Below are positions 7,531-49,435 of a stretch of DNA of 64,000 nucleotides, piece by piece (position 1 is the first letter of the stretch; every line of letters begins with the position of its first letter). Under the pieces are notes generated by a model that was given only the letters and a program-made list of their open reading frames with translations, searched no databases and was not told where the DNA came from. A program made the translations under genes and the position numbers. Source of the stretch: Minisyncoccota bacterium (GTDB lineage Bacteria; Patescibacteriota; Minisyncoccia; Phycocordibacterales; JABAAK01); the NCBI GenBank assembly GCA_963668425.1, contig OY764332.1, forward strand, positions 460,336 to 524,335. The letters run 5' to 3'.

Positions 7531-7992
7531 ATGGACTCCTTTCATTTTTTATCAAGTGAGGTTGTGGGTCTTTTTATTATGCTTGCGGGGTTTGTGGTGG
7601 GGCTTGGGGCAGTGGTCGTGATTGATGTGCATGGCTTTTTGGGACGACGTTCGTTGTATTGGAGTGAGACGACGATACGGACGCATAAGGTGACGAAGCC
7701 GTTGATCTGGATCGGTTTGCTGCTGGCTATTATTGGTGGGCTTATGGTGTATTGGGGTGAGTCGTTTGTGGGTATACCGCTTGTGCACAGTATTGTTGCC
7801 ATTGTGTTGGTGTTGAACGGCTGTTTTTTGTCGTTTTCGGTGAGTCCATTTTTATTGCGGCGTGAACAAGAAGGAAAGGCGAGGGCTTTATTACCGAAAT
7901 CGTGGCAACGAAAGATTATGATTAGTTTAGTGCTCTCTGATGTTGGGTGGTGGGGGAGCTTGTTTTTATTAGCATATTACCTAGTTGGTTAA
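7531..7992 (+). CDS. Hypothetical membrane protein (4 TM)
   Basis: 153-aa hydrophobic ORF between livF and mraY. Confidence 0.4.
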   Translation: MDSFHFLSSEVVGLFIMLAGFVVGLGAVVVIDVHGFLGRRSLYWSETTIRTHKVTKPLIWIGLLLAIIGGLMVYWGESFVGIPLVHSIVAIVLVLNGCFLSFSVSPFLLRREQEGKARALLPKSWQRKIMISLVLSDVGWWGSLFLLAYYLVG

Positions 7993-8042
7993 GGAGTGTT
8001 TTTATTAGAGGTGGTTGTGAAGTGGTACACTGTCTGTTATAT

Positions 8043-9095
8043 ATGGGTACAGGCATTATTGCACTTGGTATTGCTGTTTTTTGGTCGTCGGTTGGCATGG
8101 GGATTGGTGTGACGACATTGGTCATTCCGATTCTCAAAAAAGTGCAGGCGCAGAAAGAGAAAGATCGTAAGGAGACCTTGTATGGAACGGAGGCAGTTGA
8201 ATTTAATAAGATACGAAAAATGGAAGAGCAGGAAATAAAGAAAGAGCCGGTTGCGCGCATTGGCGGTTTGACATTATTGCCGACTGTTTTGTTTGTCGGA
8301 CTTGCTGTTGCGTGGTTGCTACAGTCAATGTTGTTGGTATTTTCTGTGGCGCTGGTGTTTGCGGTGGCGCTGGTGGCGCTGTATGATGATTTGCTTGATG
8401 TTGGCTTGCTTCGGGGGAAGGTGTGGCGTGTGCGGAAACGTCTTTTATTGTTGGGATCTGTTGCGTTTGTAGGTGGTATTGGACTGTATCAACTTTTTCC
8501 CGATATGATGATTACTTTTTTGCCGTTTTCGGTGTTTGAGCAGGTGCCAGTTGGTCTGTGGTTTCCTGTACTGTTCGCAGCATGGTATGTTTTTTGGCAA
8601 GCATCGTCTATGATAGATGGCATAGATGGGTTGTCGGGTAGTGTTTTTTTGCTGTTATTTCTTGGCACTGCGGTGGTGAGTGTGTTGCAGGGAGATGCTG
8701 AGCCGTTTATACTTAGTGCGTTGGGAGCGGGAGTGGTGGTGCCGTGGCTGTTTGTGAATTATGCACCAGCAAAGGTGTATTTGACTGAGGTGGGTATTAC
8801 TATTTTATTGATGTTGTACGCTTTGATTTCATTTTTGCTTGGCAGTGGTGAGTATGCCGGCGATGGTTTGTGGGTTAGTGGTATCTTTGGCATTGTTTTG
8901 ATAGCGACTTGGGGGTCAAATGTGTTGCAACTTTTGTATCGGAAAAAAACTGGAAAAAAGCTGTTTCGTATCGCTCCGTTACATCATCACTTTGAAGCGC
9001 TTGGTTTGCCGGGATGTGCGGTGGTCACGCGCTATATGCTGGTGACGATATTGTCTGTGATGGGTGGACTTTCACTTCTCTTTTTGTTGCAGTAA
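8043..9095 (+). CDS. mraY: Phospho-N-acetylmuramoyl-pentapeptide transferase
   Basis: Motifs SSMIDGIDGLS and PLHHHFE. The likely ATG start is at about 8043; the ORF-track start at 7947 overlaps the previous gene. Confidence 0.85.
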   Translation: MGTGIIALGIAVFWSSVGMGIGVTTLVIPILKKVQAQKEKDRKETLYGTEAVEFNKIRKMEEQEIKKEPVARIGGLTLLPTVLFVGLAVAWLLQSMLLVFSVALVFAVALVALYDDLLDVGLLRGKVWRVRKRLLLLGSVAFVGGIGLYQLFPDMMITFLPFSVFEQVPVGLWFPVLFAAWYVFWQASSMIDGIDGLSGSVFLLLFLGTAVVSVLQGDAEPFILSALGAGVVVPWLFVNYAPAKVYLTEVGITILLMLYALISFLLGSGEYAGDGLWVSGIFGIVLIATWGSNVLQLLYRKKTGKKLFRIAPLHHHFEALGLPGCAVVTRYMLVTILSVMGGLSLLFLLQ

Positions 9096-9121
9096 GTTGT
9101 TTTTTACATACCATTTATTTT

Positions 9122-10288
9122 ATGCAAAATTTGATTCGTCAATATATTACCAAGAAGGAACAGTTGCGACAGCTGATTTTGTTGGTAATTGGTGTCCTGT
9201 TCTGTATGGGGTTGTTTTTTTTGTTTTATGCATATGTTGCTGAGGCAATAAAACTGCCGAATACAAAGATATTTAATAACTTGGGTGTGCAGGTTGTGGC
9301 GTTTGGTGTCGGGTTGTTGGCGATGTATTTAGTATCGCGGCTGAGGTATCAAGTGTATCGTCGACATATTTTTTTAATTGGTACGTTGTCGTTAGTGTCT
9401 ATGTTGCTGTTGTTCACACCACTTTCAATTGAGCGAAATGGTGCCGTGCGATGGTTGGATTTGGGCATTTTGCAATTTCAGCCGTCTGAGATTTTGAAAT
9501 TGGGATTTGTGTTGTTTTTTGCATTTTTATTCACGCAAAAAAATGTTCGGAATAATATAAAAAAATTACTTGGCTTTACCGTTGCGGGGTTTTTGGTGTT
9601 GTTGGGAGCTTCAGTGTTGCAGCCGGATTATGGGTCGGCGGTGATTATCGGAAGCGCGATAATGGGAATGGCGATTATTGCCCGATTGCCGAGAGTTTGG
9701 TGGGTCAGTATTATTAGTGCTTTGCTTGTCGCAAGTGTTGCGATTAGTTTTTTCGCACCGTCGTATATCGCGAATCGTTTTAAGGTTTTTTATGATGTTA
9801 ATTTTGGTGAGTTAACGCCGGAGCAACGATATGGTGAGGCGTATCACTCGTTGCAAAACTTAGAAGCAGTTCGGGTTGGAGGGCTCTTGGGGCAGGGTCC
9901 TGGGTATGTGGCACAGAGTTCGCATTTGAGTATTCCTGAGGTGACGACTGACTCTATTTTTGCGTTGATTGCGGCAGAGGTTGGCTTTATCGGGTCGTTT
10001 ATTCTGATTTCGTTGTTTTTGTGCTTCTTTTTGTTATGTTATACCATCGCTGATTTTACTAAAGATCGGTTCGGGAAGTATGTTGTTGTGGGTATTACAA
10101 CTCTTTTTGCCGCGCAATTTTTTGTGAACATTCTTGTTGTGCTTGGTTTGCCGGCGACTGGTATTCCGCTCATATTCTTTAGTCGTGGTGGTAGTTCGTT
10201 GGTTATTACACTTGCTTCTGTGGGTATTATTCTCAATGTGTTGAAGCAGAAGCCGGTGCGGCGGGAGATTTACCGAGGAGAGTTGTAA
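9122..10288 (+). CDS. ftsW: SEDS-family cell-cycle protein (FtsW/RodA)
   Basis: Ten-TM SEDS architecture with an FtsW/RodA-like periplasmic loop. The ATG at 9122 follows the mraY stop. Confidence 0.75.
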   Translation: MQNLIRQYITKKEQLRQLILLVIGVLFCMGLFFLFYAYVAEAIKLPNTKIFNNLGVQVVAFGVGLLAMYLVSRLRYQVYRRHIFLIGTLSLVSMLLLFTPLSIERNGAVRWLDLGILQFQPSEILKLGFVLFFAFLFTQKNVRNNIKKLLGFTVAGFLVLLGASVLQPDYGSAVIIGSAIMGMAIIARLPRVWWVSIISALLVASVAISFFAPSYIANRFKVFYDVNFGELTPEQRYGEAYHSLQNLEAVRVGGLLGQGPGYVAQSSHLSIPEVTTDSIFALIAAEVGFIGSFILISLFLCFFLLCYTIADFTKDRFGKYVVVGITTLFAAQFFVNILVVLGLPATGIPLIFFSRGGSSLVITLASVGIILNVLKQKPVRREIYRGEL

Positions 10289-10600
10289 CTCGGGTATCCG
10301 TTGCACATGCTCTGTTTTGAAGCATTGCATATCTTGTATTCCTCGTGCGGCCTAACCCGCCTGCAAAGTACTGTGCCTCACGATCTTTCTAAAAGGCACT
10401 CGGAATGCAAATATGCAATGCTTTTATTTGCGTATGTTCAAACGTGTACCTCTCGTTGGTGGATAGGGGCGATATTTGGTTAGTGTTGTGCTAAACGGAG
10501 TGATCTTCGCTGGGTGTGCATCACGTGTTTCATACCGCAGTTTTGTTGTATGTGCAACGGATACCTCTCGCCGGTGGATAGGGGTGGTGTCTGTGTGTAG
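10289..10600. repeat. Copy 1 of a roughly 290-bp intergenic repeat element with 15-bp terminal inverted repeats (GGTATCCGTTGCACA ... TGTGCAACGGATACC)
   Basis: About 95% identical to 12004..12290. It starts directly after the ftsW stop codon. Confidence 0.8.
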
Positions 10601-10639
10601 GGTCTGTGGTGTGTTTGGTATGGTATTATATTTTTTAAT

Positions 10640-11233
10640 ATGCAGTCATATTTATTCTTTGGTCCTCCGGGTTCGGGCAAAGGGACGCAGAAAGATTTAT
10701 TAGCTGGTTTTTTGGAAGGGCGAAGTGGAAATTTTCCTGTTGTTATAGAAACTGGGCAATTGTTGCGTGATTTTGTTGCAGAGAAGGACACGTTGGTTAA
10801 GCGATGTCTCGCTGATGTTATGGCAAGTGGTGGATTGGTGCCATCTGCATTTCCTATTAGTGGCTGGGTGCAATCTCTATTGCAAGAGGTGGGGAATTGC
10901 GAGCATGTTATTGTTGATGGTGCTGGTAGAAAGTTGCTTGAGGCAATAATTATTGTTGAGTTGTTGCAGTTTTTTCCTGATTCGCATATTCATATTGTGT
11001 TCCTTGAGGTGCCTGATAGTGAGGTGACGGATCGGTTACTGAAACGAGGGAGGGCGGATGATAAGGTTGATGTTATTAAAACCCGTCTTGAGAAGTATAA
11101 AGACAAGAAAGTAGGAACTACGGCGTCTATTAATTTTTTGCGGAAGAATGATGAGGTTGCTTTTCATGCTGTGGATGGTGTTGGGAAAATAGAGGAAGTG
11201 CATCAGCGAGTGCGTGATACACTTGGGATATGA
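10640..11233 (+). CDS. adk: Adenylate kinase (short type, no zinc lid)
   Basis: P-loop FGPPGSGKGTQ; followed by map as in canonical gene order. Confidence 0.8.
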   Translation: MQSYLFFGPPGSGKGTQKDLLAGFLEGRSGNFPVVIETGQLLRDFVAEKDTLVKRCLADVMASGGLVPSAFPISGWVQSLLQEVGNCEHVIVDGAGRKLLEAIIIVELLQFFPDSHIHIVFLEVPDSEVTDRLLKRGRADDKVDVIKTRLEKYKDKKVGTTASINFLRKNDEVAFHAVDGVGKIEEVHQRVRDTLGI

Positions 11234-12003
11234 TTGTTACAGAGGAGAGCCAAAGAGAAATATTGTGTGAGGCGGGGAAGCGGCTACGGAAAGTGCTTGA
11301 TGCTGTTTTAGATCGTATTACTGCCGGAATAGATGCAAAATCTTTGGATGCCTTGGCACACAGTATGATTGTGGACGGCGGTGATACCCCAACCTTTTTG
11401 GGGTATCGTCCTCCTGGAGTGGCAGAAGGATATCCGGCGGTGTTGTGTGTGTCGGTGAATGATGAGGTGGTTCATGGCGTTCCCAAAAAGGAGACCGTGT
11501 TCCAGGAGGGGGATGTGGTATCTGTTGATTGTGGACTGCAACATAGAGGAGTGTTTGTTGATGCGGCGTGTACTGTAGCTGTTGGCGAAGGAGATGAAAA
11601 AGCAAGAGATTTGTTGGAGGCGAATAAAAAGGCACTACGGCATGCGTTGGTGTTTGCTCGGGCGGGTGCGACGACGGGTGATATTGGAAGTGCGGTTGAG
11701 ACCATTGCAGAGGAGTATGGTTTTGTGACGCCACCTGAGTTGGGTGGGCATGGTGTTGGTAGTGCGCAGCATGAGGATCCGTTTATACCGAATATCGGAG
11801 ATCCAGGTGCTGGAGAGCGTTTGCAAGAGGGGCAAGTGCTTGCGATAGAGCCGATTTTTTTTGAAGGGGAAAATCCGCATGTTGTTGTTTCAGATGACGG
11901 GTTTACTTATAAAACAGTAAGTGGCGATCGGTCGTCACATTTTGAGCATACCGTGCTTTTGACGGAGGGGGTGCCGGTGTTGGTGACGGGAGAGATGTGG
12001 TAG
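11230..12003 (+). CDS. map: Type I methionine aminopeptidase
   Basis: MetAP fold with metal-ligand residues (D..D..H..E..E pattern); overlaps adk by 4 nt. Confidence 0.85.
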   Translation: MIVTEESQREILCEAGKRLRKVLDAVLDRITAGIDAKSLDALAHSMIVDGGDTPTFLGYRPPGVAEGYPAVLCVSVNDEVVHGVPKKETVFQEGDVVSVDCGLQHRGVFVDAACTVAVGEGDEKARDLLEANKKALRHALVFARAGATTGDIGSAVETIAEEYGFVTPPELGGHGVGSAQHEDPFIPNIGDPGAGERLQEGQVLAIEPIFFEGENPHVVVSDDGFTYKTVSGDRSSHFEHTVLLTEGVPVLVTGEMW

Positions 12004-12340
12004 TGCTCGGGTATCCGTTGCACATGCTCTGTTTTGAAGCATTGCATATCTTGTATTCCTCGTGCGGCCTAACCCGCCTGCAAAGTACTGTGTCTTACGA
12101 TCTTTCTAAAAGGCACTCGGAATGCAAATATGCAATGCTTTCATTTGCACATGTTCAACGTGTACCTCTCGTTGGTGGATAGGGGCGATATTTGGTTGGT
12201 GTTGTGCTAAACGGGGTGATCTTCGCTGGGTGTGCATCACGTGTTTCATACCGCAGTTTTGTTGTATGTGCAACGGATACCTCTCGTATGTGAATAGGGC
12301 GATACTTATTTTTTGTTTAATTAAAGAAAGTGCTTGTCGC
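12004..12340. repeat. Copy 2 of the roughly 290-bp inverted-repeat element (direct orientation relative to copy 1)
   Basis: Same terminal inverted repeats. It starts 1 nt after the map stop codon. Its tail (ctcgtatgtgaatagggcgatacttattttttgtttaattaaagaaagtg) matches the tail of copy 3. Confidence 0.8.
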
Positions 12341-12424
12341 GGGTACTATGTCGTGTTTATTTTTTTACTTTTGTGTGTGGCACTATGCAATTTTTTGTTT
12401 TGAGGGTGTGGTAGCATAAGGGTA

Positions 12425-12748
12425 ATGCGAGCCGTTTTACTTTTTTTAGTGTTGGTTATTGTGGTGCTTGTGGCGTATATATTGGTGCCAGTTGAGCGGA
12501 TGCAGTTGCAGGCGAAGGATACTATCCAGCAAGCACAATTGCTTCATACTTCACTTGATTTTGATACTGTTGTTGATGGCTTTGGTGCACTGCTTGAGAA
12601 ACAGGAGTATGTGTTGAATGGAGAAGGAGAGGTGGTTGAGCAAGGGGGTGCTGCCAATATGTCGGATGTGTTGGTTCCGGATACGTCATCTCAGAGTGCT
12701 GATGAGGTGGTGCCTGGAGAGGGAGATGGTGCAGTGTTGGTGCGGTGA
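12425..12748 (+). CDS. Hypothetical protein with N-terminal TM anchor and acidic C-terminus
   Basis: 107-aa ORF. The 45 bp around its start is duplicated at 13243..13287. Confidence 0.35.
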   Translation: MRAVLLFLVLVIVVLVAYILVPVERMQLQAKDTIQQAQLLHTSLDFDTVVDGFGALLEKQEYVLNGEGEVVEQGGAANMSDVLVPDTSSQSADEVVPGEGDGAVLVR

Positions 12749-13703
12749 GCGTTGTCAATTGTTTTGCTCGTTGCATTACAAGCAAACAAACCCAACACTT
12801 TTGTGTTGGGTTCTTTCGACTGATTTCCATCAGCCATTCGGAAGACAGGTCTTTTCACCCTGCTCTATCCATCCTCCACATCCAAATGAGATGTTGGAGA
12901 ATCATTCGAAAGAATGTTTGCATTGTGAGCCACCTATAGCGGCGCGTTCGAATGCCGGCGAATTTGGTATAGTCCGGCTGCTGAGGCGCCGTGCTGCGGT
13001 GGCTTTCCACAATTCCATAAAGTAACCCGCTGTGGATTATCTTATGGAATTGTGGAACATTCATTCTTTCTTCTTTGAATGTCCTTTACTGTTTCTACTA
13101 TAGCATGTATATTTTTCTTTGTCAAGCCCCTAGAAAGAACTTGATTTTATAGGGTTTTGGTGAAAATAGTGTTGGTTTGCTTGAATTTGTGTCTACTATA
13201 TACATTATATTGTTTAATTTTCTTGATTTTGTGTAGTTGGCTGTTAGAGGTGCTTGTGGCGTATATATTGGTGCCAGTTGAGCGGATGCAGTTTCTAAAA
13301 AGGGCAATAATTTTATCATAAGATTTTATATGATTTGTCAAGAGATATAGGAGGAGGCATCGCGCAAGGATACTACCTTGTGATTTGCTATTTTTTGGTT
13401 TTATTGCGTAATATTCCTTGCTATTATGGGGTTTTGTGGCATAACTATGGGTTGTGTTCTTAGTTTTTATGTGGTATAGTGTTGTTGACAAGTATTCTGT
13501 ATGTTATGCCATCAAGCACAACTATCCGTTACTACGTTGCTAATACCCTTTTGAATAACAGGGTTTTGGTCTGTATTTGGTGATTTTTTCTTCCGATATG
13601 ATCTGGGAGAGAGAGGTTGGTTTTTTTCGTATATTATGGTATGATGATATTGGTTACTGTTTTGTTTTCAAACAAACCCGTGGCCAAGCTACATCATATT
13701 ATT

Positions 13704-14723
13704 ATGAAAATACAAGTAAAAAAATTAGTAGATAAAGCATTGGAGTCGCTGACAGACCAACAGCGTCGGGTGCTTGTATTGCGTTATGGCTTGGACGGTA
13801 AAGGAAAACGAACGCTACAAGAAATCGCCGATGAATACTCATTGACCAGGGAGCGAATTCGCCAAGTTCAAAACATGGCTATTAGTGCTCTCGGCAAAGA
13901 TACCTGTGCGGGTCTGCTTGCCTCTGCCATGACCTATCTTGAAGACATGTTGCGCAAGTGCGGTGGTGTGACTTCTGTTGATGCTTTGTGTGCAAGTTGT
14001 GAATTTGCCACGAAAGCGGAGCATAATTATATTCACCTGCTTTTGATGGTCGGTAATTCTTTCTCTGTTTCTGATGCGACTGATGCTGTTGCTCAGTATT
14101 GGTATGTTGATGAAAAGCATAAGGGAGCTATTGACGCAACCTTGGACAGAGTGCATGAGGATGTTGAGAATCGTGGTGAGGTATTGCTGACTGATGATGA
14201 TATGCGACAATTGTTTGACGCGTTTAGTGTTGAACATAAAGAGCATCTCCCTATGTACAGTGACGCCATGCGTCTTTCGCTTAAGGTGAAGCAGAATCCC
14301 CTCGGTGAATGGGGTCTTGCAAGCCACCCTGAGGTTGCTTTGAATGGTCTTGCTGGTTACATTCGTCTTGTGCTTCGTGATGCGGGTGAGCCGCTTCATT
14401 TTAACAAAGTTGCTGATCGGATTTCAGGGCTGCGTGGTAAGAAGTGCCATCGTGGTAGCTGTCACAACGAATTAGTGCGACGAGATGAGTTTATTCTTGT
14501 TGGTCGCGGTCTGTACGCTCTTGACAGTATGGGATACCGTCCTGGTACTATTGCTGACATTATTGCTGCAGGTATTAAAGAGTTCGGACCTATGACACAG
14601 AAAGAGGTTATTGAATATGTGAGCCGTGAGCGTCATGTGAAGACACAATCTATCGTTTTGACACTCGGTAAGAAAGGTATGTTTACAAGAGATGAGCAGA
14701 GTCGGTACTGTTTGGCAGTATAA
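13704..14723 (+). CDS. Sigma-70 region-4 HTH domain protein with a large uncharacterised C-terminal domain (not a complete sigma factor)
   Basis: The N-terminus LTDQQRRVLVLRYGLDG...TLQEIADEYSLTRERIRQVQNMAISAL is a classic sigma-70 region 4. Regions 2 and 3 are absent. An AT-rich non-coding stretch of about 950 bp lies upstream. Confidence 0.6.
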   Translation: MKIQVKKLVDKALESLTDQQRRVLVLRYGLDGKGKRTLQEIADEYSLTRERIRQVQNMAISALGKDTCAGLLASAMTYLEDMLRKCGGVTSVDALCASCEFATKAEHNYIHLLLMVGNSFSVSDATDAVAQYWYVDEKHKGAIDATLDRVHEDVENRGEVLLTDDDMRQLFDAFSVEHKEHLPMYSDAMRLSLKVKQNPLGEWGLASHPEVALNGLAGYIRLVLRDAGEPLHFNKVADRISGLRGKKCHRGSCHNELVRRDEFILVGRGLYALDSMGYRPGTIADIIAAGIKEFGPMTQKEVIEYVSRERHVKTQSIVLTLGKKGMFTRDEQSRYCLAV

Positions 14724-14779
14724 GTGCTTGATTTGCACTGTGAGATCCTGTTTGCATTGACTCTATCTACGATTAACCG

Positions 14780-14811
14780 AAAAACCCCTTCCTATATATG
14801 GAGGGGTTTTT
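14780..14811. terminator. Rho-independent terminator
   Basis: AAAACCCCTTCC-tatatat-GGAGGGGTTTTT. Confidence 0.6.
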
Positions 14812-14934
14812 CGCTTTGTAGGAGCGTTGGTTGTTGTAGATATCGTAGTATACTGTTTGTATATTTTGTATTAATGTCTTGTGTTCGTTATTTTTAGAGA
14901 CAATATTTATATTCCTTTTTTTAAGGTTGGATTC

Positions 14935-16326
14935 ATGTGCCTCTTTTTTGCGTATATAGCGTACCTTGCGTATAACGTTGTTACGCCGGGTTACTTTATA
15001 GATGCTTTTTTTACCAATCCTTCTTTTTTTGTGGCGATTAAGTTTGCTGCGATATATTTGGTGTTTTGTGCTTTGGTAACATTGGTGTTGTCGGCAGCGC
15101 TGTATGCATATATTGAGGTTGGGCGGTATCGGCAGCAGGTGACATTTTTGAGTGAGGAGCGGAAGATTCTTGAGGTGCGTATTCCTGAGACGGGGCAGGA
15201 AACCCTCGCGTCTATGGAGGCGTTTCTTGAGATGATTTCATATGGTAGTGGTGAGGGGCGTTGGTTTCCGGTGTGGTGGAATGGTAAAAAGCGGGTGCTG
15301 TATTCATTTGAGATTATGTCCAAGGGTGGGATTGTTTCATTTGTTATACATACACGAGCGACTGTTGTAGAGGCAGTGTCATCGGCTATATATTCATTTT
15401 ACCCAAGAGCACAAGTCACAGAATCTGATGATTACGTATATGATTTTGAGTATGATGAGGAGGCGTATGATGTGTTTAGTATTGAGTGGAAGTTTAAAGA
15501 GGATAATGCGTTGCCAATTAAGACGTATGTGGAATTTCAAACTTTGCGGGAGCCAGTGGTTGCCCTTGATAAGACAACACAGCAGCCGATTGATCCGATC
15601 GCTGCGTTGTATGATTTTTTTGGCTCTATTTCCGGAGATGAGCAGTTGTGGGTACAGTATGTTTTTCGCACGCAGAAGTATAGTCGTGCTGAGGAGAGTG
15701 CGAGCGATGATCCGTTGGTGCGGGAGTATTGGAAGAAGCAGAAGTTTCCGGAGGAGGTACACGATGCGTTGGTTGCACTTGAGAAGAAAGTGCGTGGCGG
15801 TAGAGAAGAAGGGGTAGAGCCCGTGGTGTTGAACGCTGCGGAAGAGCGTTTACGAGAGATTGGCGCGCGCATTGCTGAGAAGCAGGCGTTGGAGGTAGGA
15901 ATACGGTCGTTGTATATTGCGAAAAAGGATGCATTTGACAGAGGAAGGATTCCCCCCTTTTTGTCGGTGTATAAACTGACGAACGCTGCCGATAATGCTT
16001 TGGTGCCACAAGGGACGATTCTTGAAGATGTTTCGCACATTCCTGCGCTTGAGCCGCCGCGGAGGGATAAACTTGAGGCGAAGAAGCAGTTGTTGCAGTT
16101 GTATCGGGATCGGATGTTTTGGTTTGCACCGGCGTTGCGTGAGTTTCAGCCATCTGATGAGACACGGAAGGGGGTTGATGGTCCGACGTTGAAGCGGGTT
16201 GCAACTGTGATGTCTACCGAGACCTTGGCGACTATTTGTCACTTTCCGACCGGTTATATTAAGACACCAACGGTACGGCGAGTGCTTTCTACCGAGGTTG
16301 AACCGCCTGAGAACCTACCTATATAA
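14935..16326 (+). CDS. Hypothetical membrane protein (two N-terminal TM helices, about 400-aa soluble domain), translationally coupled to mltG
   Basis: The stop overlaps the mltG start (ATAATGA). A putative promoter TTGGTT-16-TATACT lies at about 14830..14858. Confidence 0.45.
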   Translation: MCLFFAYIAYLAYNVVTPGYFIDAFFTNPSFFVAIKFAAIYLVFCALVTLVLSAALYAYIEVGRYRQQVTFLSEERKILEVRIPETGQETLASMEAFLEMISYGSGEGRWFPVWWNGKKRVLYSFEIMSKGGIVSFVIHTRATVVEAVSSAIYSFYPRAQVTESDDYVYDFEYDEEAYDVFSIEWKFKEDNALPIKTYVEFQTLREPVVALDKTTQQPIDPIAALYDFFGSISGDEQLWVQYVFRTQKYSRAEESASDDPLVREYWKKQKFPEEVHDALVALEKKVRGGREEGVEPVVLNAAEERLREIGARIAEKQALEVGIRSLYIAKKDAFDRGRIPPFLSVYKLTNAADNALVPQGTILEDVSHIPALEPPRRDKLEAKKQLLQLYRDRMFWFAPALREFQPSDETRKGVDGPTLKRVATVMSTETLATICHFPTGYIKTPTVRRVLSTEVEPPENLPI

Positions 16327-17519
16327 TGAGTAGTATGCATCAGTATCTTATTGTAATTCAGGAACACCTTGTTGGTTTGGGTGGATTGTTTGTGTCTTTT
16401 TTTTCGCGACGTAGGTTGGTGTATTGGTATGGTATTGCTAGTTTTTTATTTTTGCTTTTTTGCTTGTTGGCACTTTTTCTTTTGCCTCCGCTGGGGGAAG
16501 AGCGGTATCCGCAGGTGTTTATTGCTTCTGAAGGAAAGACGATACGGGCTATTGCTGGTGATCTGCGTCGACAGAATATTATTAGTTCTCCATCTCTTTT
16601 TATTTTTTCTAACTATCTATTTGGTGGGAATATTATGTGGGGTTCATACCATTTTCACAAATCACGCGGTGTAATTTTTCATGCACATGATTTGTATGTT
16701 GGCAGACAAAATATGCCACTTCGAAGGGTAAGGATACCTGAGCGTAGTGATGCGTATAAGATGGCTGATATATTTGAGAAGGAGTTTCCCGATTTTGATC
16801 GTGATGCATTTTTGGAGGTAGCGCTTCCACATCACGGTTATTTATATCCGGATACGTATTTATTTGCGCATAGTTACGGTTCTGTAAATCACCTTGTTGA
16901 AGTCATGACGGAAACTTTCAGGCAAAGAACAGCTGATTTGTTTGCTTCATATACTGGTGATTTAACTATGGATGAGATTGTGACGTTGGCGTCTATTGTT
17001 GACCTTGAGGCAAGTCGTTTTGAGGACAGGCGAAAAATAGCGCAGGTGCTTTTGAATCGGTTGGAGATTAATATGCCGTTGCAGGTTGATGTGTCGTTTT
17101 TGTTTATTGAGGATAAACATACCTTTCAGATCAGTCGTGATGATTTGGCTTCTGATGATCCCTCTAATACATATAAGTATGCTGGTATTCCTCCTATACC
17201 AATTACAAATCCGATCCGTGCATCTATTGAGGCCGTTATGGACCCAGAAGAGACAGACGCATTATATTTTTTGGCGGATTTTTATGGGAATACCTACTAC
17301 AGCAGAACTTTTCAAGAGCACTTGGTGAAGAAGGAGAAATACATAGACAGTGTGCGTAGGGAAAATGGTGGTCGTGTTCCTGTTGCATCAAAGCCAGATG
17401 GGGAGAAACAGGTGGTAGAGAGTGATCTAGATGAGGAGCGGCAGGTGGTAGAGGATGGAGACGGTGATGATAATGAGATGACTGCTTTGCCGTCTGGGTC
17501 GGTGATAATGAGAGAGTAG
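16326..17519 (+). CDS. mltG: Endolytic murein transglycosylase MltG (YceG family)
   Basis: N-terminal TM. YceG-like motifs MPLQVDVSFLF, YNTY and AGIPPIPITNPIRASIEAVMDPEETDALYFLAD. Confidence 0.7.
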   Translation: MSSMHQYLIVIQEHLVGLGGLFVSFFSRRRLVYWYGIASFLFLLFCLLALFLLPPLGEERYPQVFIASEGKTIRAIAGDLRRQNIISSPSLFIFSNYLFGGNIMWGSYHFHKSRGVIFHAHDLYVGRQNMPLRRVRIPERSDAYKMADIFEKEFPDFDRDAFLEVALPHHGYLYPDTYLFAHSYGSVNHLVEVMTETFRQRTADLFASYTGDLTMDEIVTLASIVDLEASRFEDRRKIAQVLLNRLEINMPLQVDVSFLFIEDKHTFQISRDDLASDDPSNTYKYAGIPPIPITNPIRASIEAVMDPEETDALYFLADFYGNTYYSRTFQEHLVKKEKYIDSVRRENGGRVPVASKPDGEKQVVESDLDEERQVVEDGDGDDNEMTALPSGSVIMRE

Positions 17520-17581
17520 GGCAACACCACCCTTTGTTTCCGTATACCTTATTTTTTGTTGTTGGTTTATACTGTTTGGTA

Positions 17582-18661
17582 ATGACTGGAGCAAAGAAGG
17601 GCGGTGTTTGTGGGCGTGTTGGGGTGTTGCTTTCTGGTGGGGTTGATTCGTCAGTTGCGGCACATTTGTTATTGCGGGACGGGTTTGCGGTATCAGGGGT
17701 GTTCATCACAATTTGGAACCCTTCGCATATTCCATGCACTGCGGCAACAGATCGGCAGGATGCAATGCGGGCATGTGCTGCGCTTGGCATTCCGTTTGTG
17801 GAGTACGATGCAACTGATGTGTACCGGAAGAAGGTGATAGATCCTTTTGTGGAGGCGTATCGCCGAGGTGAGACGCCGAACCCTGATGTGTTGTGTAATC
17901 AGTTTGTGAAATTTGGCGTGGCTTTTTCTTTTATTCTGGAAAAGGGGTTTGATTGTGTTGCGACTGGACACTATGGGCAGGTGCGAGAAGTTGGTGATGT
18001 GCGTCGGCTGTATCAATCTGTTGATACGGATAAGGATCAGACATATTTTATGTATACGATATCGCAGAAAGTGCTTGATAGGACTCTGTTTCCGGTTGGT
18101 GGGTACACAAAGCGACAGGTGCGTGCATTTGCTCATGTTGCCGATTTACCTGCTGCCGAAAAGAAGGACAGCGTTGGCTTATGTTTTTTGGGTGCTGTTT
18201 CTATGCGAGATTTTTTGTCAGCATACATTAAGACAAAGCAAGGTGACGTGTGTTTGCTTGGGAGTGGGAAGATTATTGGTACGCATGATGGTGCGTGGTT
18301 TTACACGCTTGGACAACGGCATGGGTTTAGTGTTGTAGATGTTGATCAAGGTCCATATGTTGTTGTTGGTAAGGATGTTGAGAGAAATGTGTTGTTTGTG
18401 CAAAAAGGTACTGCTGCTCGTGTGAGTGGCTCTTGTCAGTTTGCTCTCGGAGATGTTGTGTTTCGGCGATTGCCATTGGATGGTGAGGATTTTGTTGCAC
18501 GGTATCGGCATCGGGGGAATTTGTATCCGGCATCGCTTGAGGTGTGTGGTGATTCTGCTGTGGTTACCTTTGCGGAGAAACATGTGGTCGCGAAAGGACA
18601 GTCGGTGGTAGTGTATGGGAGTGATGAGGAGTGTCTCGGAGGAGGGGTGGTGCTCGGGTAG
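17582..18661 (+). CDS. mnmA: tRNA-specific 2-thiouridylase
   Basis: PP-loop VLLSGGVDSSV and the MnmA central and C-terminal domains. Confidence 0.8.
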   Translation: MTGAKKGGVCGRVGVLLSGGVDSSVAAHLLLRDGFAVSGVFITIWNPSHIPCTAATDRQDAMRACAALGIPFVEYDATDVYRKKVIDPFVEAYRRGETPNPDVLCNQFVKFGVAFSFILEKGFDCVATGHYGQVREVGDVRRLYQSVDTDKDQTYFMYTISQKVLDRTLFPVGGYTKRQVRAFAHVADLPAAEKKDSVGLCFLGAVSMRDFLSAYIKTKQGDVCLLGSGKIIGTHDGAWFYTLGQRHGFSVVDVDQGPYVVVGKDVERNVLFVQKGTAARVSGSCQFALGDVVFRRLPLDGEDFVARYRHRGNLYPASLEVCGDSAVVTFAEKHVVAKGQSVVVYGSDEECLGGGVVLG

Positions 18662-19088
18662 TCGCCGAACATGTTTTGCTTTCCTTTGGGTGCTGAGGTG
18701 GTGAGCGGAGTTAATCCCTCTTCGTTATGAGTGTGGTTTTTAGGTGAAGGCGATTTATTTGCTATGTAACCCTTGTCGGTGATATTATGTGTGTAGAGCG
18801 TAAGTGCAATTCCTTATTTTTTGGAGGTGAGAGCGTTGAGAATATCACGATTTCGTTCTCGGATTTTTTCAAAGAAGATTTTTTCTTGTCGGAAGAGAGA
18901 CCGTTCTGTGACCACTGTTTTGAATAAATGTGTTTCTGTTGAGGGTGCTTTTTTTGAGGTATCAGGTCTTTGTTATTTTCAAGATAGACAGACTGCACGT
19001 TGTTTTTATAGCAATTTGCAGGATTTGATACGGGCATTTAAGGGTAGAGATGGTAATTACTTTGAAAGTTCGCTTAGAAAGATATGAT

Positions 19089-19129
19089 TTTTGCCCGACA
19101 GGAGGAGTGTGCCTCCTGTCGGGCATTTT
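19089..19129. terminator. Strong hairpin terminator
   Basis: GCCCGACAGGAGG-agtgtg-CCTCCTGTCGGGC followed by a T-run. It may end a small gene or RNA at 18836..19087. Confidence 0.55.
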
Positions 19130-19182
19130 ACTTGTGATAGCAAGAGTTTTTTGTTAATTCACAACTTATACACAATGTGGTA

Positions 19183-19211
19183 TTGCGTTATTTTGGTGGG
19201 TTGGGTATACT
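19183..19211 (+). promoter_or_regulatory. Putative sigma-70-type promoter of the 23S-5S rRNA operon (TTGCGT-17-TATACT)
   Basis: The hexamers sit about 245 nt upstream of the mature 23S 5-prime end. The same hexamers recur at 47818 and 48466. Confidence 0.45.
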
Positions 19212-19454
19212 GAATTTGTGTTTAAGAAAAGCGATAAATTATAGGAACCTACAAGGGGCTTGATTTTTGTGTATAACGAGAAAAAAAGAACATTGCCCTT
19301 CAAAGGGCAATTTTCTTTGCACTGATCTTTTAACAATTAGCATTGCAAATAGCATGAGCAATTCGTTCATCAAATATTGATGAATAATTGGAACACAAAA
19401 ATAAAAAAAATAATAAAAATAAAGAACGTAAGCGGTTTTTGATTTCCTGTGAAG

Positions 19455-22440
<2,986 letters not shown>

Positions 22441-22567
22441 TTTACAGGAAATCAAAAACCGTTTTTTATTGAGTATTTTTATTGAGTACACTGATGAGTT
22501 GCTCATGCTATTTGCAATGCACACGATCGGACATAGTCCGAATTTTATAGACACAATACATTGTTTT

Positions 22568-22680
22568 GTTCTGGTGATGAAACCGGAGGGGAAACACCTG
22601 TTCTCATTCCGAATACAGCCGTTAAGGCCTCCAGGGGCGATGGTACTGCTTTATAGCGGGAGAGTAGCTCGTCGCCAGTA
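22568..22680 (+). rRNA. rrf: 5S ribosomal RNA
   Basis: Has a CCGAATACAGCCGTTAAG loop-C-like region and the helix I pairing CTGGTGA / TCGCCAG. Confidence 0.7.
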
Positions 22681-22810
22681 CAAAGTAGTGTATGTATTCG
22701 GGTATCCGTTGTACACTCTTTTTACTGTATCTTTGTTGATTGTCCAACGCGTACTTCTCGTGTGTGAATGAGGCGATATTTATTTTTTGTTTGATTAAAG
22801 AAAGTGATCT
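22681..22810. repeat. Copy 3 (short variant) of the inverted-repeat intergenic element, directly 3-prime of the 5S rRNA
   Basis: It starts GGGTATCCGTTGTACAC. Its tail ctcgtgtgtgaatgaggcgatatttattttttgtttgattaaagaaagtgatcttcgc matches copy 2. Confidence 0.7.
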
Positions 22811-23024
22811 TCGCAGGCACTGCACTGGCTTAGAGTATTGCTATATCATGCAATCCTTTCGTTTGTACCTGTGCAATGTGTGTCCTTCATGTGTTGGTGG
22901 GTTTTGTGTGTATTGATACTAAAAATACCTTGTAAAATAAGGTTTTTCTTGGGAGGAAGGTGTCGTTCTTGTGGATGTATGCTACAATTATATTTACTTA
23001 TAGCACATATATAAGAGGGAGAGA

Positions 23025-26829: not shown

Positions 26830-29800
26830 CTATTGTGCCAGGGTAGTGAAAGGTACTGGTATGCTTTTTTGCTCTTGTTGCCAAACATTGTCCACCCTAG
26901 GTATTACTTCTACAGCATATGCTGTATTTGATCGGAGTCCGTCTATTTTCTTATAGTTGGTAGATACAAACTGATACTGTGATGTATTGCTTTGGGCGCC
27001 TGTTTTCCACCACCTGACTGTGTACTGATCTGCCTTAGGTAGTGTTGGCCAGGTAGCCGTGGCGCTATCAGATGTGATAGATATTACAGAGAGGGAAATC
27101 TTCTCCTTCGCTATTGTATCATCATCATCTGCTATTGTTGTCGTTGCTGTGCCTTGGGTACTGGAGATTGTGTAGCCACTGCCAGCAGTTACGGTTACCG
27201 TTACCGAGCCGTCTGGTTCATCTACTTGGTCTCCATTCGCTGGGATGGTCAGTGTCGCTGTTCCACTTGTGGGGATAGTTACCGTCTGACTTCCAGCTGT
27301 TATACCATAGTTGCCACTTGCCGTAATTGATACCGTTACTGGCAGATCTGCTGTCGGTACTGGGCTCGCTGAGAGGGTGAATGTTGCACTGCTCCCCTCT
27401 GTTATACCGCCGTCAGTCCTGATACGTATCTCTGGGATGGAAGGCGTTACCCCATCATCATCTGCTATTGTTGTTGTTGCTGTGCCTTGGGTACTGGAGA
27501 TTGTGTAGCCACTGCCAGCAGTTACGGTTACCGTTACCGAGCCGTCTGGTTCATCTACTTGGTCTCCATTCGCTGGGATGGTCAGTGTCGCTGTTCCACT
27601 TGTGGGGATAGTTACCGTCTGACTTCCAGCTGTTATACCATAGTTGCCACTTGCCGTAATTGATACCGTTACTGGCAGATCTGCTGTCGGTACTGGGCTC
27701 GCTGAGAGGGTGAATGTTGCACTGCTCCCCTCTGTTATACCGCCGTCAGTCCTGATACGTATCTCTGGGATGGAAGGCGTTACCCCATCATCATCTGCTA
27801 TTGTTGTTGTTGCTGTGCCTTGGGTACTGGAGATTGTGTAGCCACTGCCAGCAGTTACGGTTACCGTTACCGAGCCGTCTGGTTCATCTACTTGGTCTCC
27901 ATTCGCTGGGATGGTCAGTGTCGCTGTTCCACTTGTGGGGATAGTTACCGTCTGACTTCCAGCTGTTATACCATAGTTGCCACTTGCCGTAATTGATACC
28001 GTTACTGGCAGATCTGCTGTCGGTACTGGGCTCGCTGAGAGGGTGAATGTTGCACTGCTCCCCTCTGTTATACCGCCGTCAGTCCTGATACGTATCTCTG
28101 GGATGGAAGGCGTTACCCCATCATCATCTGCTATTGTTGTTGTTGCTGTGCCTTGGGTACTGGAGATTGTGTAGCCACTGCCAGCAGTTACGGTTACCGT
28201 TACCGAGCCGTCTGGTTCATCTACTTGGTCTCCATTCGCTGGGATGGTCAGTGTCGCTGTTCCACTTGTGGGGATAGTTACCGTCTGACTTCCAGCTGTT
28301 ATACCATAGTTGCCACTTGCCGTAATTGATACCGTTACTGGCAGATCTGCTGTCGGTACTGGGCTCGCTGAGAGGGTGAATGTTGCACTGCTCCCCTCTG
28401 TTATACCGCCGTCAGTCCTGATACGTATCTCTGGGATGGAAGGCGTTACCCCATCATCATCTGCTATTGTTGTTGTTGCTGTGCCTTGGGTACTGGAGAT
28501 TGTGTAGCCACTGCCAGCAGTTACGGTTACCGTTACCGAGCCGTCTGGTTCATCTACTTGGTCTCCATTCGCTGGGATGGTCAGTGTCGCTGTTCCACTT
28601 GTGGGGATAGTTACCGTCTGACTTCCAGCTGTTATACCATAGTTGCCACTTGCCGTAATTGATACCGTTACTGGCAGATCTGCTGTCGGTACTGGGCTCG
28701 CTGAGAGGGTGAATGTTGCACTGCTCCCCTCTGTTATACCGCCGTCAGTCCTGATACGTATCTCTGGGATGGAAGGCGTTACCCCATCATCATCTGCTAT
28801 TGTTGTTGTTGCTGTGCCTTGGGTACTGGAGATTGTGTAGCCACTGCCAGCAGTTACGGTTACCGTTACCGAGCCGTCTGGTTCATCTACTTGGTCTCCA
28901 TTCGCTGGGATGGTCAGTGTCGCTGTTCCACTTGTGGGGATAGTTACCGTCTGACTTCCAGCTGTTATACCATAGTTGCCACTTGCCGTAATTGATACCG
29001 TTACTGGCAGATCTGCTGTCGGTACTGGGCTCGCTGAGAGGGTGAATGTTGCACTGCTCCCCTCTGTTATACCGCCGTCAGTCCTGATACGTATCTCTGG
29101 GATGGAAGGCACTGGATCATTGTGAGAGAGTAGTATGATACGTGGTATTGTTGGTTCTACTTGGTATAAGTCAGGACGAGTCGTAGCAAACCCGTTAGGT
29201 GTTCGTACCACAATATACTGTAAGGCGTCAAGATCGGGAAAGGTGATTTTTTGAGCATCGGCTTCCATTGTGAGTACCTCTGAGTCAGACCCAGATTTAG
29301 TTTTTGGCTCTATGGTCAGAGGGAAATCCCGTTTCCGACTGATAAACAGGTATTGCTTTTGTTTGTTAATTGTTATATGCAATGAGTCATCATCTATATG
29401 TTTGATGGCTAAGATATTATGGGCGGGGTCTATCGTTATTCCGGGCAGGTTGCCGATCAAGGATAGGGTGGCTGTTGCTGCGGCGTCCTGCTCTACCTTA
29501 TTGTCGTCTTTGGTTTCTATCTCGATGTAACCGCGATTTTCTCCTATCTGCATTTGTTCCACTTTCCATTCGATGTCATGATCGGCAGGTTCAGGATCGG
29601 AGTTTTGAGGGATGATAATGAAATTTCCTGCCGTGATGGTAAAGCCCAGCGATAATGTCTGTGTTGGAATTCTGAATGGAATTCGCCGGCTGGAAGTGAA
29701 ATATATTCGATATATCTGATTTCCTTCCGTAATGTTGACGGAAGGAGGTCCGGTAAGACGGATGGTGATGGGCGTGTCATTGTCTACTATCTGCACGGTT

Positions 29801-32800: not shown

Positions 32801-32877
32801 GGTGTATGCATGATTCTATCTTTTATTATCACACGTTCGGCTTGTTGAATCAAGGTATTTGCTATATTTGCCATCAC
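26830..32877 (-). CDS. Giant (2015 aa) cell-surface protein with multiple Calx-beta-like beta-sandwich domains, six identical 111-aa tandem repeats and a C-terminal fibronectin-III-like domain
   Basis: An N-terminal signal/TM (AIVLALLVAIGLASLF) is followed by Calx-beta-like repeats (APADYTAGPYQVKFTKGEQSKTFTIPTAKDSIDENVEMFEISI). The six 111-aa copies each end ADDDG. The C-terminus (WPTLPKADQYTVRWW...NTAYAVEV) is FN3-like. Confidence 0.8.
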   Translation of the reverse strand: MMANIANTLIQQAERVIIKDRIMHTPRHQHVFNQSKNVFHYAIVLALLVAIGLASLFGPQAPAEAQSVSNPFMIQPSSSLIPDGIGTDDKFRLIFITSTQHTADSTDSNTYNTLVQTAAGNNNAFTNDEVDSNTIANIKIVGSTSTIDARDNTAMWNNNTSTWQDTNDNVPIYWVSGDKVADSYADFYDGSWKPLRQNLPRDESGNRITPDHITVWTGSNDDGTKHNTNPLGASQVLWGAVGLVTGTGINPIGNTNTSNTASNTTKHRLYGITPVFQVEKTGILFDDSRKNLEVGEGDGAKVTLHLTAPAQEDVTITVNTKDKTATAPADYTAGPYQVKFTKGEQSKTFTIPTAKDSIDENVEMFEISIQTNNLPGWLNLLSTEGSSVSIWEKVELTIAPMNSATEVVEGGEARFTITANQSSDIDLEVKYRVTDGPGHDYIDDDKTGLFTATIPAEATTATIKVETRNDGIDQPAATGNGQITVTIDPHYNGVYTLGSANSVNLPIYDSQATLISATPVIGGNPEHLVEGGIYQFNTTLSRELIAPEEITIPFTFGGTATYGTDYKLLCPRFDNLKNMKAVCNNFNGNSPSITFTGGDPTENTDSIADIQMYEFLQVLTDSTAETAPETITITLDVDTTSGVNLHGGAQGTIYSSTIQDPPATSTVQFSKNMFVVNEASGLLEATVTLSAPLGSDLTLPITITEQGATRGTDFLLADNGIVIKAGESTATFSANIPNDDLAEGNEQFTITINANQLPNSPTAITTGSNAAATVLIIDDEPIQVTLDASRKIILEGGEDSIITLTLNRPLQTGEALTVPVTVTGDADQGTDYTLTETAAAGVTYTGVGTANATVSFAPSTATTATLTLNAPDDSTIEADIEAVTVTIGDLSFTKTDTRNPDPVTQGSPVNLYLFDPSNHVQWITLTPQGIDEHQDFYIGEENAGTLQVSLDSAPTAQVTAQVTISTGSSHATISGGPLTFSPTDYTDEAISILGTPDSDTNELDTVIIRFTLSSTDERYNGKTYDKTVQIVDNDTPITIRLTGPPSVNITEGNQIYRIYFTSSRRIPFRIPTQTLSLGFTITAGNFIIIPQNSDPEPADHDIEWKVEQMQIGENRGYIEIETKDDNKVEQDAAATATLSLIGNLPGITIDPAHNILAIKHIDDDSLHITINKQKQYLFISRKRDFPLTIEPKTKSGSDSEVLTMEADAQKITFPDLDALQYIVVRTPNGFATTRPDLYQVEPTIPRIILLSHNDPVPSIPEIRIRTDGGITEGSSATFTLSASPVPTADLPVTVSITASGNYGITAGSQTVTIPTSGTATLTIPANGDQVDEPDGSVTVTVTAGSGYTISSTQGTATTTIADDDGVTPSIPEIRIRTDGGITEGSSATFTLSASPVPTADLPVTVSITASGNYGITAGSQTVTIPTSGTATLTIPANGDQVDEPDGSVTVTVTAGSGYTISSTQGTATTTIADDDGVTPSIPEIRIRTDGGITEGSSATFTLSASPVPTADLPVTVSITASGNYGITAGSQTVTIPTSGTATLTIPANGDQVDEPDGSVTVTVTAGSGYTISSTQGTATTTIADDDGVTPSIPEIRIRTDGGITEGSSATFTLSASPVPTADLPVTVSITASGNYGITAGSQTVTIPTSGTATLTIPANGDQVDEPDGSVTVTVTAGSGYTISSTQGTATTTIADDDGVTPSIPEIRIRTDGGITEGSSATFTLSASPVPTADLPVTVSITASGNYGITAGSQTVTIPTSGTATLTIPANGDQVDEPDGSVTVTVTAGSGYTISSTQGTATTTIADDDGVTPSIPEIRIRTDGGITEGSSATFTLSASPVPTADLPVTVSITASGNYGITAGSQTVTIPTSGTATLTIPANGDQVDEPDGSVTVTVTAGSGYTISSTQGTATTTIADDDDTIAKEKISLSVISITSDSATATWPTLPKADQYTVRWWKTGAQSNTSQYQFVSTNYKKIDGLRSNTAYAVEVIPRVDNVWQQEQKSIPVPFTTLAQ
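27115..29112. repeat. Six perfect tandem copies of a 333-bp coding repeat inside the giant surface-protein gene
   Basis: Five identical 65-aa shadow ORFs on the plus strand sit exactly 333 nt apart. The protein repeat VTPSIPEIRIRTDGG...TTTIADDDG is identical six times. Confidence 0.9.
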
Positions 32878-49163: not shown

Positions 49164-49249
49164 CATCTTCATTTTCTTGGAGTGTCCTTGATATTCATAT
49201 ATTTGCCTTGCAAAAGCAAGGCAAATTATTTTTTTGACCAAATTTGTTG

Positions 49250-49343
49250 TATGACCGCCGTGAAACGGCGGAAACTGACCGCTGTATGTTGCATGCACTG
49301 ACGTGCTGTTTTGTGTGACCCCACGGGGAATCGAACCCCCTGT
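49250..49343. repeat. Tandem duplicate of the tRNA-Glu 3-prime 24 nt plus about 70 bp of its downstream flank
   Basis: 49250..49343 is nearly identical to 49370..49460. The two copies are separated by a 28-bp hairpin (GTTTTTGgctctgaCAAAAAC). Confidence 0.8.
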
Positions 49344-49435
49344 TTTTGGCTCTGACAAAAACCTGGTTATATGACCGCCGTGAAACGGCGGAAACTGACC
49401 GCTGTATGTTGCATGCACTGACGTGCTGTTTTGTG

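Follow-up and report, generated by a model that had tools for sequence, protein, structure and literature searches.

The window, as the whole stretch of 64,000 nucleotides (nt) from contig OY764332.1 of a Minisyncoccota bacterium is called here, contains a set of non-coding repeats that follow the ends of ftsW, map and the 5S rRNA gene. They represent a new, narrowly distributed family of mosaic intergenic hairpin repeats of the REP/BIME (repetitive extragenic palindromes and the mosaic elements that they form), ERIC, BOX and MIRU kind, whose unusual points are the streamlined genome of the candidate phyla radiation (CPR) in which they occur, their exact placement at stop codons and their local concerted evolution. 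The explanation that we favour, with confidence and doubt about evenly balanced, is that of a lineage-restricted family of hairpin modules which would be co-transcribed and would have spread locally by duplication and gene conversion. The original prediction, made from the letters of the window, had proposed a single element of 290 bp with terminal repeats; this was not borne out, and the element resolves into smaller modules recombined into a mosaic.

The two long copies flank the genes adk and map. A repeat search in the window aligned 10289-10441 with 12006-12158 (97% identity) and 10441-10583 with 12157-12299 (96%), with a 1-nt indel between the two segments, and BLAST gave 95.9% identity across 295 nt, in agreement with the identity of about 95% first noticed for the copies around adk-map. 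Both contain a perfect 16-nt inverted repeat, GGTATCCGTTGCACAT/ATGTGCAACGGATACC (10293-10308 with 10550-10565 in copy 1, 12010-12025 with 12266-12281 in copy 2), which lengthens as RNA to 19 bp if G.U pairs are counted, and a perfect 13-nt inverted repeat is nested within it at 10320-10332/10411-10423. The 64-kb window holds no additional matches to the inverted repeat of the copies, and the arms of copy 3 and of the units of related genomes are imperfect, unlike those of the long copies. The repeated internal motif that had been described was recovered as a 22-nt sequence, TACYTCTCGNNNGTGRATRRGG, which occurs five times and on the plus strand only (10447, 10562, 12163, 12278 and 22752), while about 0.01 occurrences are expected by chance; the repeats of the window are far above chance expectation.

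Related sequences were sampled around adk as six contigs, L011 to L016, chosen by Adk homology, and around ftsE as L026 to L031 (85-93% FtsE identity), together with a further 10.5 kb of the L011 contig (L032). Across the window and these relatives, the recurring unit is about 100-110 nt long, always lies on the coding strand and is built as a mosaic. From 5' to 3' it comprises a left arm (CTCG-GGGTA...), a loop, a right arm (...GTGTACC-N-CTCG), a purine-rich box (box 2; GUGGAUGGGG, in its profile form GTGGATGGGG), the hairpin H3 (GCGAUA...UCGC), which is made of GCGATAYTT, about 22 nt of two or three sequence types and ...TCGC, and finally the GGGUAC box (box 3; GGGTACYGCACTGTG) and a T-rich stretch. 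Among 21 aligned units, 15 columns are invariant. The arms form the hairpin H1, with CUCG-GGGUA...UACC-N-CUCG at its base and a loop that accommodates inserts between 17 and about 235 nt long, which are long hairpins in their own right. Of these, hairpin A is found in the window and at the yceG and mnmA sites of L011, hairpin B follows ftsW in L011 and L013, both spacers of L014 hold hairpin C, and hairpin D occupies the map spacer of L011. The GGGUAC box resembles the left arm; in tandem arrangements it serves as the H1 left arm of the next unit, and elsewhere it forms a weak hairpin before a U-rich tract. L011 contains such a tandem array, with a period of 109 nt (L011 18945-19271), and one left arm can pair with several right arms downstream. 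The family consensus of the right arm, GTGTACC, leaves a U.G pair and a mismatch, and the outer arm of the window copies reads GGATACC. By this comparison, the perfect inverted repeat is a derived, local refinement of this genome: the 15-bp repeat that had been reported is indeed perfect, and 16 nt long, but it is derived and not terminal to one 290-bp unit.

In the window, copy 1 is a composite that occupies the ftsW-adk spacer (10289-10598, plus strand). Its left arm (10289-10310) is followed by inner hairpin A (about 10319-10425), by an internal right arm with a complete unit (10429-10536; box 2 at 10456-10468, H3 at 10469-10510), and by the outer right arm (10548-10566), CUCG (10567-10570) and a truncated box 2 that extends to about 10598. 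Hairpin A (10320-10423, and 12037-12140 in copy 2; plus strand) lies inside the H1 loop, has the perfect 13-nt arms plus further pairs, and recurs in L011 behind both yceG and mnmA. Copy 2, which lies 3' of map and before the next gene (12006-12365, plus strand), keeps the layout of copy 1 until 12286 and then carries a complete terminal unit, consisting of box 2 (12287-12298), H3 (12299-12340), the box-3 hairpin (12338-12355) and a T-run (12356-12365), which places its right end at about 12363-12365, some 60 nt past the boundary previously assigned. Copy 3 is a short form (22697-22837, plus strand), with a left arm from 22697, a unit end at about 22837 and a tail 80% identical to that of copy 2; its H1 is a 14-bp imperfect stem (22699-22716 with 22738-22757) around a 17-nt loop, after which come CUCG (22757-22760), box 2, H3 (22773-22814) and box 3. 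A shorter relative abutting the 5S rRNA had been anticipated, and it exists, but it begins 17 nt past that gene. At a fourth site (18653-18675, plus strand), a degenerate left-arm remnant, CTCGGGTAGTCGCCGAACATG, overlaps the end of mnmA: the reading frame ends in CTC GGG TAG (18653-18661), continues as TCGCCGAACATG, and has its stop codon (TAG, 18659-18661) embedded in CTCGGGTAG. This remnant is a degenerate left arm of the L013 type and provides the stop codon of mnmA, and at the same site L011 shows ...GTGTAA followed directly by CTCGGGTATCC and then about 700 nt with 5 units. As had been stated, the repeats contain no conserved open reading frame (ORF): the short ORFs at 10301-10483, 11997-12182 and 12122-12403 are not kept in copies that differ by indels.

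The evidence that the units are structured comes mainly from H1. In a fixed-anchor alignment of 10 arm pairs, its 19 pairs have 80.5% of the cells paired, as against 26-53% when the partner columns are slid, and 9 of the 19 are altered on both sides, with a core that reads GUUG/CAAC in the window and L011, GCCG/CGGC in L013 and CACC/GGUG in L014; none of 500 shuffles attained the observed pairing or covariation score. When H1 and hairpin A are taken together, four copies from two genomes show 94.5% pairing and three compensatory pairs. The inner sequences of H3, of which there are two or three unrelated versions, each form a hairpin; since these variants cannot be aligned column by column, they were folded singly, giving -7 to -14 kcal/mol on the plus strand in most units (-1.6 in one; mean z -1.41) and -1 to -5 kcal/mol on the minus strand (-10.3 in one; mean z -0.13). 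The folding and covariation analysis that had been suggested thus shows a covarying H1, compensatory pairs in hairpin A and a strand-specific H3. Covariation of H1 between genomes argues that the family is more than three chance copies devoid of conserved structure. No match at gathering score was found in Rfam 15 for the window or L011, and E-value mode returned only miRNA-precursor noise far below threshold.

The distribution of the units was assessed with an nhmmer profile built on the recurring unit. It detects 5 units in the window, 14 in L011 and 4 in L014 (both 87% identical in Adk), and 2 in L013 (82%), every one of them intergenic and on the coding strand. None is found in L012, a close relative with 84% Adk identity, in L015 and L016 (70%), or in L026 to L031. 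Its Adk homologues assign the window to Candidatus Kaiserbacteria, which are CPR bacteria, and the genomes that carry units make up a small clade of this group. Within each genome, the units are clustered: those of the window are all found from 10,289 to 22,840 of its 64 kb, and the 14 of L011 are contained in 10.4 kb of the 31 kb read. Further afield, the pattern TCGGGTATCCGTTGYACA gave 10 single matches in public genome contigs, from unrelated phyla and all attributable to chance, the pattern GTGTACYNCTCGN{12,15}GCGATAYTT gave 9 single, non-homologous matches in metagenome contigs, and an exact-pattern scan of viral contigs gave none. No comparable family turned up in the literature on repeat elements of CPR bacteria or Patescibacteria.

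The units are placed with precision at the ends of genes. Homology between the repeats begins 0 nt past the stop codon of ftsW (9014-10288, plus strand, identified by Pfam; TAA at 10286-10288), which abuts the left arm of copy 1, and 2 nt past that of map (TAG at 12001-12003); a start within 1 nt of the upstream stop codon, as initially described, therefore holds for ftsW but not for map. In general, the left end, CTCGGGTA, lies 0-10 nt past the stop codons of ftsW and map in the window, L011 and L014, of ftsW in L013, and of yceG and mnmA in L011, and this junction is precise, often with GTAA joined directly to CTCGGGTA. Every first arm has CTCG (CTTG or TTCG in some copies) immediately 5' of the GGGTA stem base. 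On the other side of copy 1, a candidate adk promoter with an extended -10-like box, TGGTATTAT (10616-10639, plus strand), can be proposed about 14 nt 5' of the ATG; versions of it are found in L011, L012 and L014 (TGGTATCAT in L014), and a similar box, TGGTTTATACT, precedes mnmA (17560-17584), with an L012 example at 9975-10000. The position of this box, about 14 nt from the start codon, suggests near-leaderless transcripts and a promoter for each gene. The genes flanked by copies 1 and 2 were assigned by Pfam (adk 10640-11233, map 11230-12003, plus strand), and the 5S rRNA gene upstream of copy 3 by Rfam (22570-22680, plus strand). In a search for signals within the unit itself, nothing convincing was found that would correspond to a sigma-70-type promoter. 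In a terminator scan, the single terminator-like feature of the repeats was the weak hairpin of box 3 (12338-12355) and the T-run that follows it to 12365, and GC-rich terminators of the ordinary type occur elsewhere in the window (for example at 19092-19125). H1 was rejected as a canonical intrinsic terminator, as it has no U-tract. Of the proposal that the repeats form a structured RNA or a terminator module, the part that stands is a repeated, non-coding, hairpin-forming sequence of conserved structure, but not the canonical terminator.

How the units spread can be followed in the spacers. The window has 351 nt between ftsW and adk, and L011 about 870 nt, while the unit-free spacers of L012 are 167 and 127 nt long. 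Between yceG and mnmA, a 390-nt element occurs in L011 only; the window has 14 nt there and L014 has 30 nt. Behind ftsW and map, the window carries a 155-nt module that shares 82-83% identity with the elements after yceG and mnmA in L011; its match to the ftsW element of L011 is limited to about 100 nt. Within a genome, the copies that flank adk-map are 95.9% identical in the window and 94.6% in L014, whereas copies at the same site in different genomes do not exceed 83% over about 100 nt, and the inner parts of the window and L014 copies are unrelated. We take these flanking copies, direct repeats 1.7 kb apart, to have been homogenised by gene conversion or re-duplication, apparently independently in the window and in L014. 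The search for target-site duplications that had been recommended was made by comparing the filled (L011) with the empty (L014 and window) yceG-mnmA sites; it revealed no duplication and no sharply defined right boundary, and the CTCG at the flanks belongs in every copy to the conserved unit. None of the 30 window ORFs scanned against Pfam encodes a transposase or recombinase, and no RAYT (REP-associated tyrosine transposase) was seen among them.

The original prediction had further supposed that the flanking copies might have mobilised adk-map. The order mraY-ftsW-adk-map-x-sigma is shared by the window, L011 and L014, where it is accompanied by units, and by L012, which has no repeats; in L013 it is kept only through map, after which a restriction-modification cluster follows. 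As the order is present in the repeat-free L012, mobilisation of adk-map by the repeats is unsupported, and as it is shared among relatives, the position of adk-map is older than the near-identical repeats and independent of them. This is also the outcome of the synteny comparison that had been called for: the order predates the near-identical copies, whose high identity is better explained by gene conversion, which seems to have acted independently in L014 as well. In deeper relatives the arrangement differs, with ftsW followed directly by ftsE in L026 and 23S-5S-ART-adk-map-secDF in L015 and L016, and the three window copies coincide with old synteny junctions of these deeper relatives. The second adk paralog that had been mentioned was confirmed as an ADK-domain gene at 56463-57068.

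A connection with the rRNA trailer is indicated by copy 3 and by L015. As read from the sequence, copy 3 lies directly 3' of the extended 5S helix or processing stem, and the distant L015 has in the same place after its 5S gene TTTGGGTAATCATGTGCTACCT, a minimal hairpin with a GGGUA/UACC base. The short form in the rRNA trailer and the hairpin of L015 argue for a connection with this trailer and not for a classical transposon, and the arrangement, seen in two lineages only, suggests that H1 may have begun as an rRNA trailer hairpin that was later copied to neighbouring gene ends. They also bear on the possibility, raised at the outset, that the repeat matches a known rRNA-operon or tRNA-associated spacer. 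In the window, the 23S-5S pair (19448-22680) has no 16S rRNA gene within 19 kb upstream. The 23S gene of L015 contains a LAGLIDADG ORF, probably in an intron (L015 6905-7594).

Under the favoured explanation, from which we infer transcription of the units, a function at the RNA level and a recombinational mode of spread, each unit would be transcribed as the 3' flank of the gene upstream. There it could, on the most economical reading, act as an RNA hairpin module, be it a 3'-end barrier or a processing site, roles also ascribed to REP, ERIC and Correia elements, or a weak terminator or insulator between independently promoted genes; or it may be a nearly neutral passenger on the 3' end of the upstream transcript. 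The units would probably have been seeded from the rRNA (5S) trailer, and would multiply and be homogenised locally through tandem duplication and gene conversion between neighbouring spacers and not through cut-and-paste transposition. Several points weigh against this explanation, beginning with the fact that both the transcription and the RNA function are deduced from sequence features. The covariation of H1 is based on 10 arm pairs, from about three to four lineages; taken as a whole, the unit has a weak consensus fold (-3.2 kcal/mol), the four outer pairs of H3 being invariant, and the tandem array of L011 does not exceed shuffled sequence in stability (z +0.37). Along nearly the whole window (1-64000) the GC skew is very strong, about +0.3, and T exceeds A. 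Almost all genes lie on this strongly G/T-rich plus strand, whose composition alone favours G.U pairs and whose C-to-T mutation bias could be enough to enrich them. The orientation bias and the G.U (G.T) pairs fit equally well a structure formed in single-stranded DNA, since with all neighbours on the same strand this is also the strand exposed as single-stranded in replication. Moreover, H1 is followed by CUCG and the purine-rich box and not by a U-tract, which, with ordinary terminators present elsewhere, makes a canonical terminator role unlikely for most modules. The occurrence of the same module behind different genes in different genomes, with a very precise left junction, would also fit transposition, and the window represents about 10% of its source genome, so the local clustering could be a sampling effect.

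Transposition is at the centre of a second explanation, possible but distinctly less probable, by which the repeats are non-autonomous mobile DNA, similar to miniature inverted-repeat transposable elements (MITEs), REPINs or PATEs, and moved in trans by a transposase encoded elsewhere. A candidate variant involves a Y1 (HUH) enzyme specific for single-stranded DNA that would recognise the hairpin on the lagging-strand template and cleave beside CTCG. The perfect 16-nt inverted repeat of the window copies speaks for mobility, as do the 155-nt module shared at 82-83% identity between the ftsW and map sites of the window and the yceG and mnmA sites of L011, the presence/absence polymorphism (390 nt between yceG and mnmA in L011 against 14-30 nt in the window and L014, and the unit-free L012), the precise left junction, the CTCG on both sides of the hairpin, which recalls the REP tetranucleotide, the location of all copies on the G/T-rich strand that is single-stranded in replication, and a TnpB/Cas12f-like gene in the related genome L026. 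Nevertheless, no target-site duplication was found and the right boundary is blurred, no transposase was found in the 30 window ORFs tested, and the units are confined to one 10-12 kb stretch in the 64 kb of the window and the 31 kb of L011, with no copies in the three public collections scanned. In addition, the arms covary rather than staying conserved, which is unexpected of a transposase binding site, and the tandem arrays and mosaic exchange of flanks fit recombination better. The MITE-like proposal of the original prediction accordingly retains its inverted repeats and the copying of modules between intergenic regions, but it fails the duplication test and is unproven on dispersal and transposase. 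An integron attC site or cassette was considered and rejected: inspection by eye shows arms that depart from the core-site consensus, both adk and map belong to the core genes and keep their synteny, and there is no integrase.

It is improbable that each unit is instead a discrete gene for a small structured RNA with its own start and end, such as a multi-copy small RNA or an undescribed ribozyme or processing signal, even though the tandem array of L011 with its period of about 109 nt, the conserved boxes, with 15 invariant columns in 21 units, the strand-specific folding and the weak hairpin and U-rich tail at the end of the unit would suit such a gene. Against it are the absence of an Rfam family even at permissive thresholds and of a promoter-like site in the unit, the weak consensus fold, and the free variation of unit number and content in close relatives, one of which has none, which argues against an essential RNA gene. 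We consider very improbable an origin of the repeats as recombination sites or scars of a rearrangement that placed adk-map and 23S-5S between ftsW and ftsE. The three copies do lie at the three synteny junctions with the distant relatives L026 and L015/L016, and the direct repeats around adk-map are 96% identical; but L012 has ftsW-adk-map-x-sigma without units, ftsW-adk-map is common to L011, L013 and L014, which means that the junctions predate the near-identical copies, homogenisation of the flanking copies took place separately in the window and in L014, L011 has units between yceG and mnmA and after mnmA with no rearrangement seen there, and no recombinase gene is near (30 window ORFs, Pfam). 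Simple recombination leaves unexplained the 0-nt junctions behind three unrelated genes, the CUCG that flanks the hairpin and the strict single orientation. These would be accounted for by a hairpin element that homes right after stop codons through a single-stranded DNA or RNA intermediate, its core (CUCG ... GUGGAUGGGGCGAUA ... UCGCGGGUAC) being a catalytic or processing RNA, so far undescribed, which sets its own ends, a conjecture to which we attach very little weight.

Several known repeat systems can be compared with the family. The REP/BIME sequences of Enterobacteria and the REPINs, as is well established, are likewise intergenic, non-coding hairpin units with a short conserved sequence at the foot of the stem, and REP/BIME elements also form mosaics with other short motifs, often just 3' of genes, where they are thought to be transcript 3' hairpins, a role that the present units might share by analogy. 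REPs differ in being about 35 nt long, present in hundreds of dispersed copies, of alternating orientation in BIMEs and linked to RAYTs, whereas the present units are about 100 nt long, have one orientation, were seen in one 10-12 kb region and have no RAYT among the ORFs scanned; the tetranucleotide at the foot of the REP stem is GTAG and here it is CTCG, so the resemblance is one of analogy only, the motif being different. ERIC elements (IRU) of Enterobacteria and Vibrio are also imperfect palindromes of 100-130 nt in intergenic regions, with larger forms that arise by insertions at fixed internal sites and can be likened to hairpins A-D in the H1 loop. They lie in transcribed intergenic regions, but are genome-wide, in both orientations and without tandem arrays, and have no sequence similarity to the units described here.

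BOX elements of Streptococcus pneumoniae share with the present units a modular build with a variable number of the middle module, a predicted stable RNA, an intergenic location and the lack of a known transposase, but they amount to more than 100 dispersed copies, are made of other modules without sequence similarity, and are not tied to stop codons or to the rRNA trailer. The mycobacterial MIRU repeats are similar in their tandem units of 50-100 nt, their location in spacers between same-strand genes, their orientation with transcription, their contact or overlap with the upstream stop codon and their variable copy number; they carry short ORFs that couple translation and are not hairpin-based, in contrast to the units here, which have covarying hairpins and no conserved ORF. 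Correia (NEMIS) elements of Neisseria and MITEs resemble the long copies in size (100-300 bp), terminal inverted repeats and presence or absence among strains, and in Neisseria the Correia elements are co-transcribed and form long RNA hairpins that are substrates of RNase III, which would parallel the presumed co-transcription of the present units. Correia elements differ by their TA target-site duplications, by inverted repeats of 26 bp that are conserved and by dispersed copies in the hundreds; the units here show no duplication, have covarying arms and are locally distributed.

CPR genomes are small and tightly packed, and yet the spacers described here contain up to about 870 nt of structured repeats, compared with about 130-170 nt in sister strains. 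If the modules are RNA 3'-end structures, they would offer uncultured bacteria with near-leaderless, individually promoted genes a way to separate their transcripts, and may illustrate the recruitment of an rRNA trailer hairpin. With its direct repeats around essential genes, the family also provides a small and clean case of concerted evolution, and it is a possible strain-level marker. For annotation, such repeats give spurious ORFs and break assemblies, an example being a 124-aa "gene" called over L011 18928-19302.

Other features were recorded in the window and its relatives. Between map and the sigma factor gene, where the ORFs are short and overlapping, a perfect 45-nt direct repeat (12463-12507 and 13249-13293) suggests a partly duplicated or decayed gene. 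A 32-nt perfect palindrome between divergent genes, AATACCCGAATATTTGAAAATATTCGGGTATT (1708-1739), is kept in L011/L032 (L032 9733-9760) and could be an operator or a bidirectional terminator; the CGGGTAT that it shares with the repeat's left arm is probably a 7-mer match due to chance. Two large ORFs contain tandem repeats: that of 2015 aa on the minus strand (26830-32877) includes six copies, 100% identical and with a 333-bp period (27120-29084), whose perfect identity suggests a very recent expansion or else assembly collapse or duplication, and that of 1106 aa (40059-43379) includes three 369-bp copies (41774-42811; 99-100% identical) and a related 59-nt repeat encoding a Gly/Gln-rich sequence. 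Partial or full tRNA duplications, 120-126 nt apart, occur at 49246-49459, 60518-60721 and 61607-61819, and consist of a 94-nt repeat over tRNA-Glu (minus strand), part of tRNA-Trp and two tRNA-Leu(caa) genes; they could be att-site duplications of integrated elements or decaying tRNA copies. In L011, ftsW (7948-9021) is called as three fragments of 174, 84 and 93 aa, which points to frameshifts of long-read assembly or to a pseudogene. The conserved ftsW/ftsE neighbourhood is an insertion hotspot in related Kaiserbacteria, in which a TnpB/Cas12f-like gene, restriction-modification clusters with a BglII-like endonuclease, and a resolvase lie beside these genes (L026 3605-5014; L013 11570-14779; L029 12792-17275).

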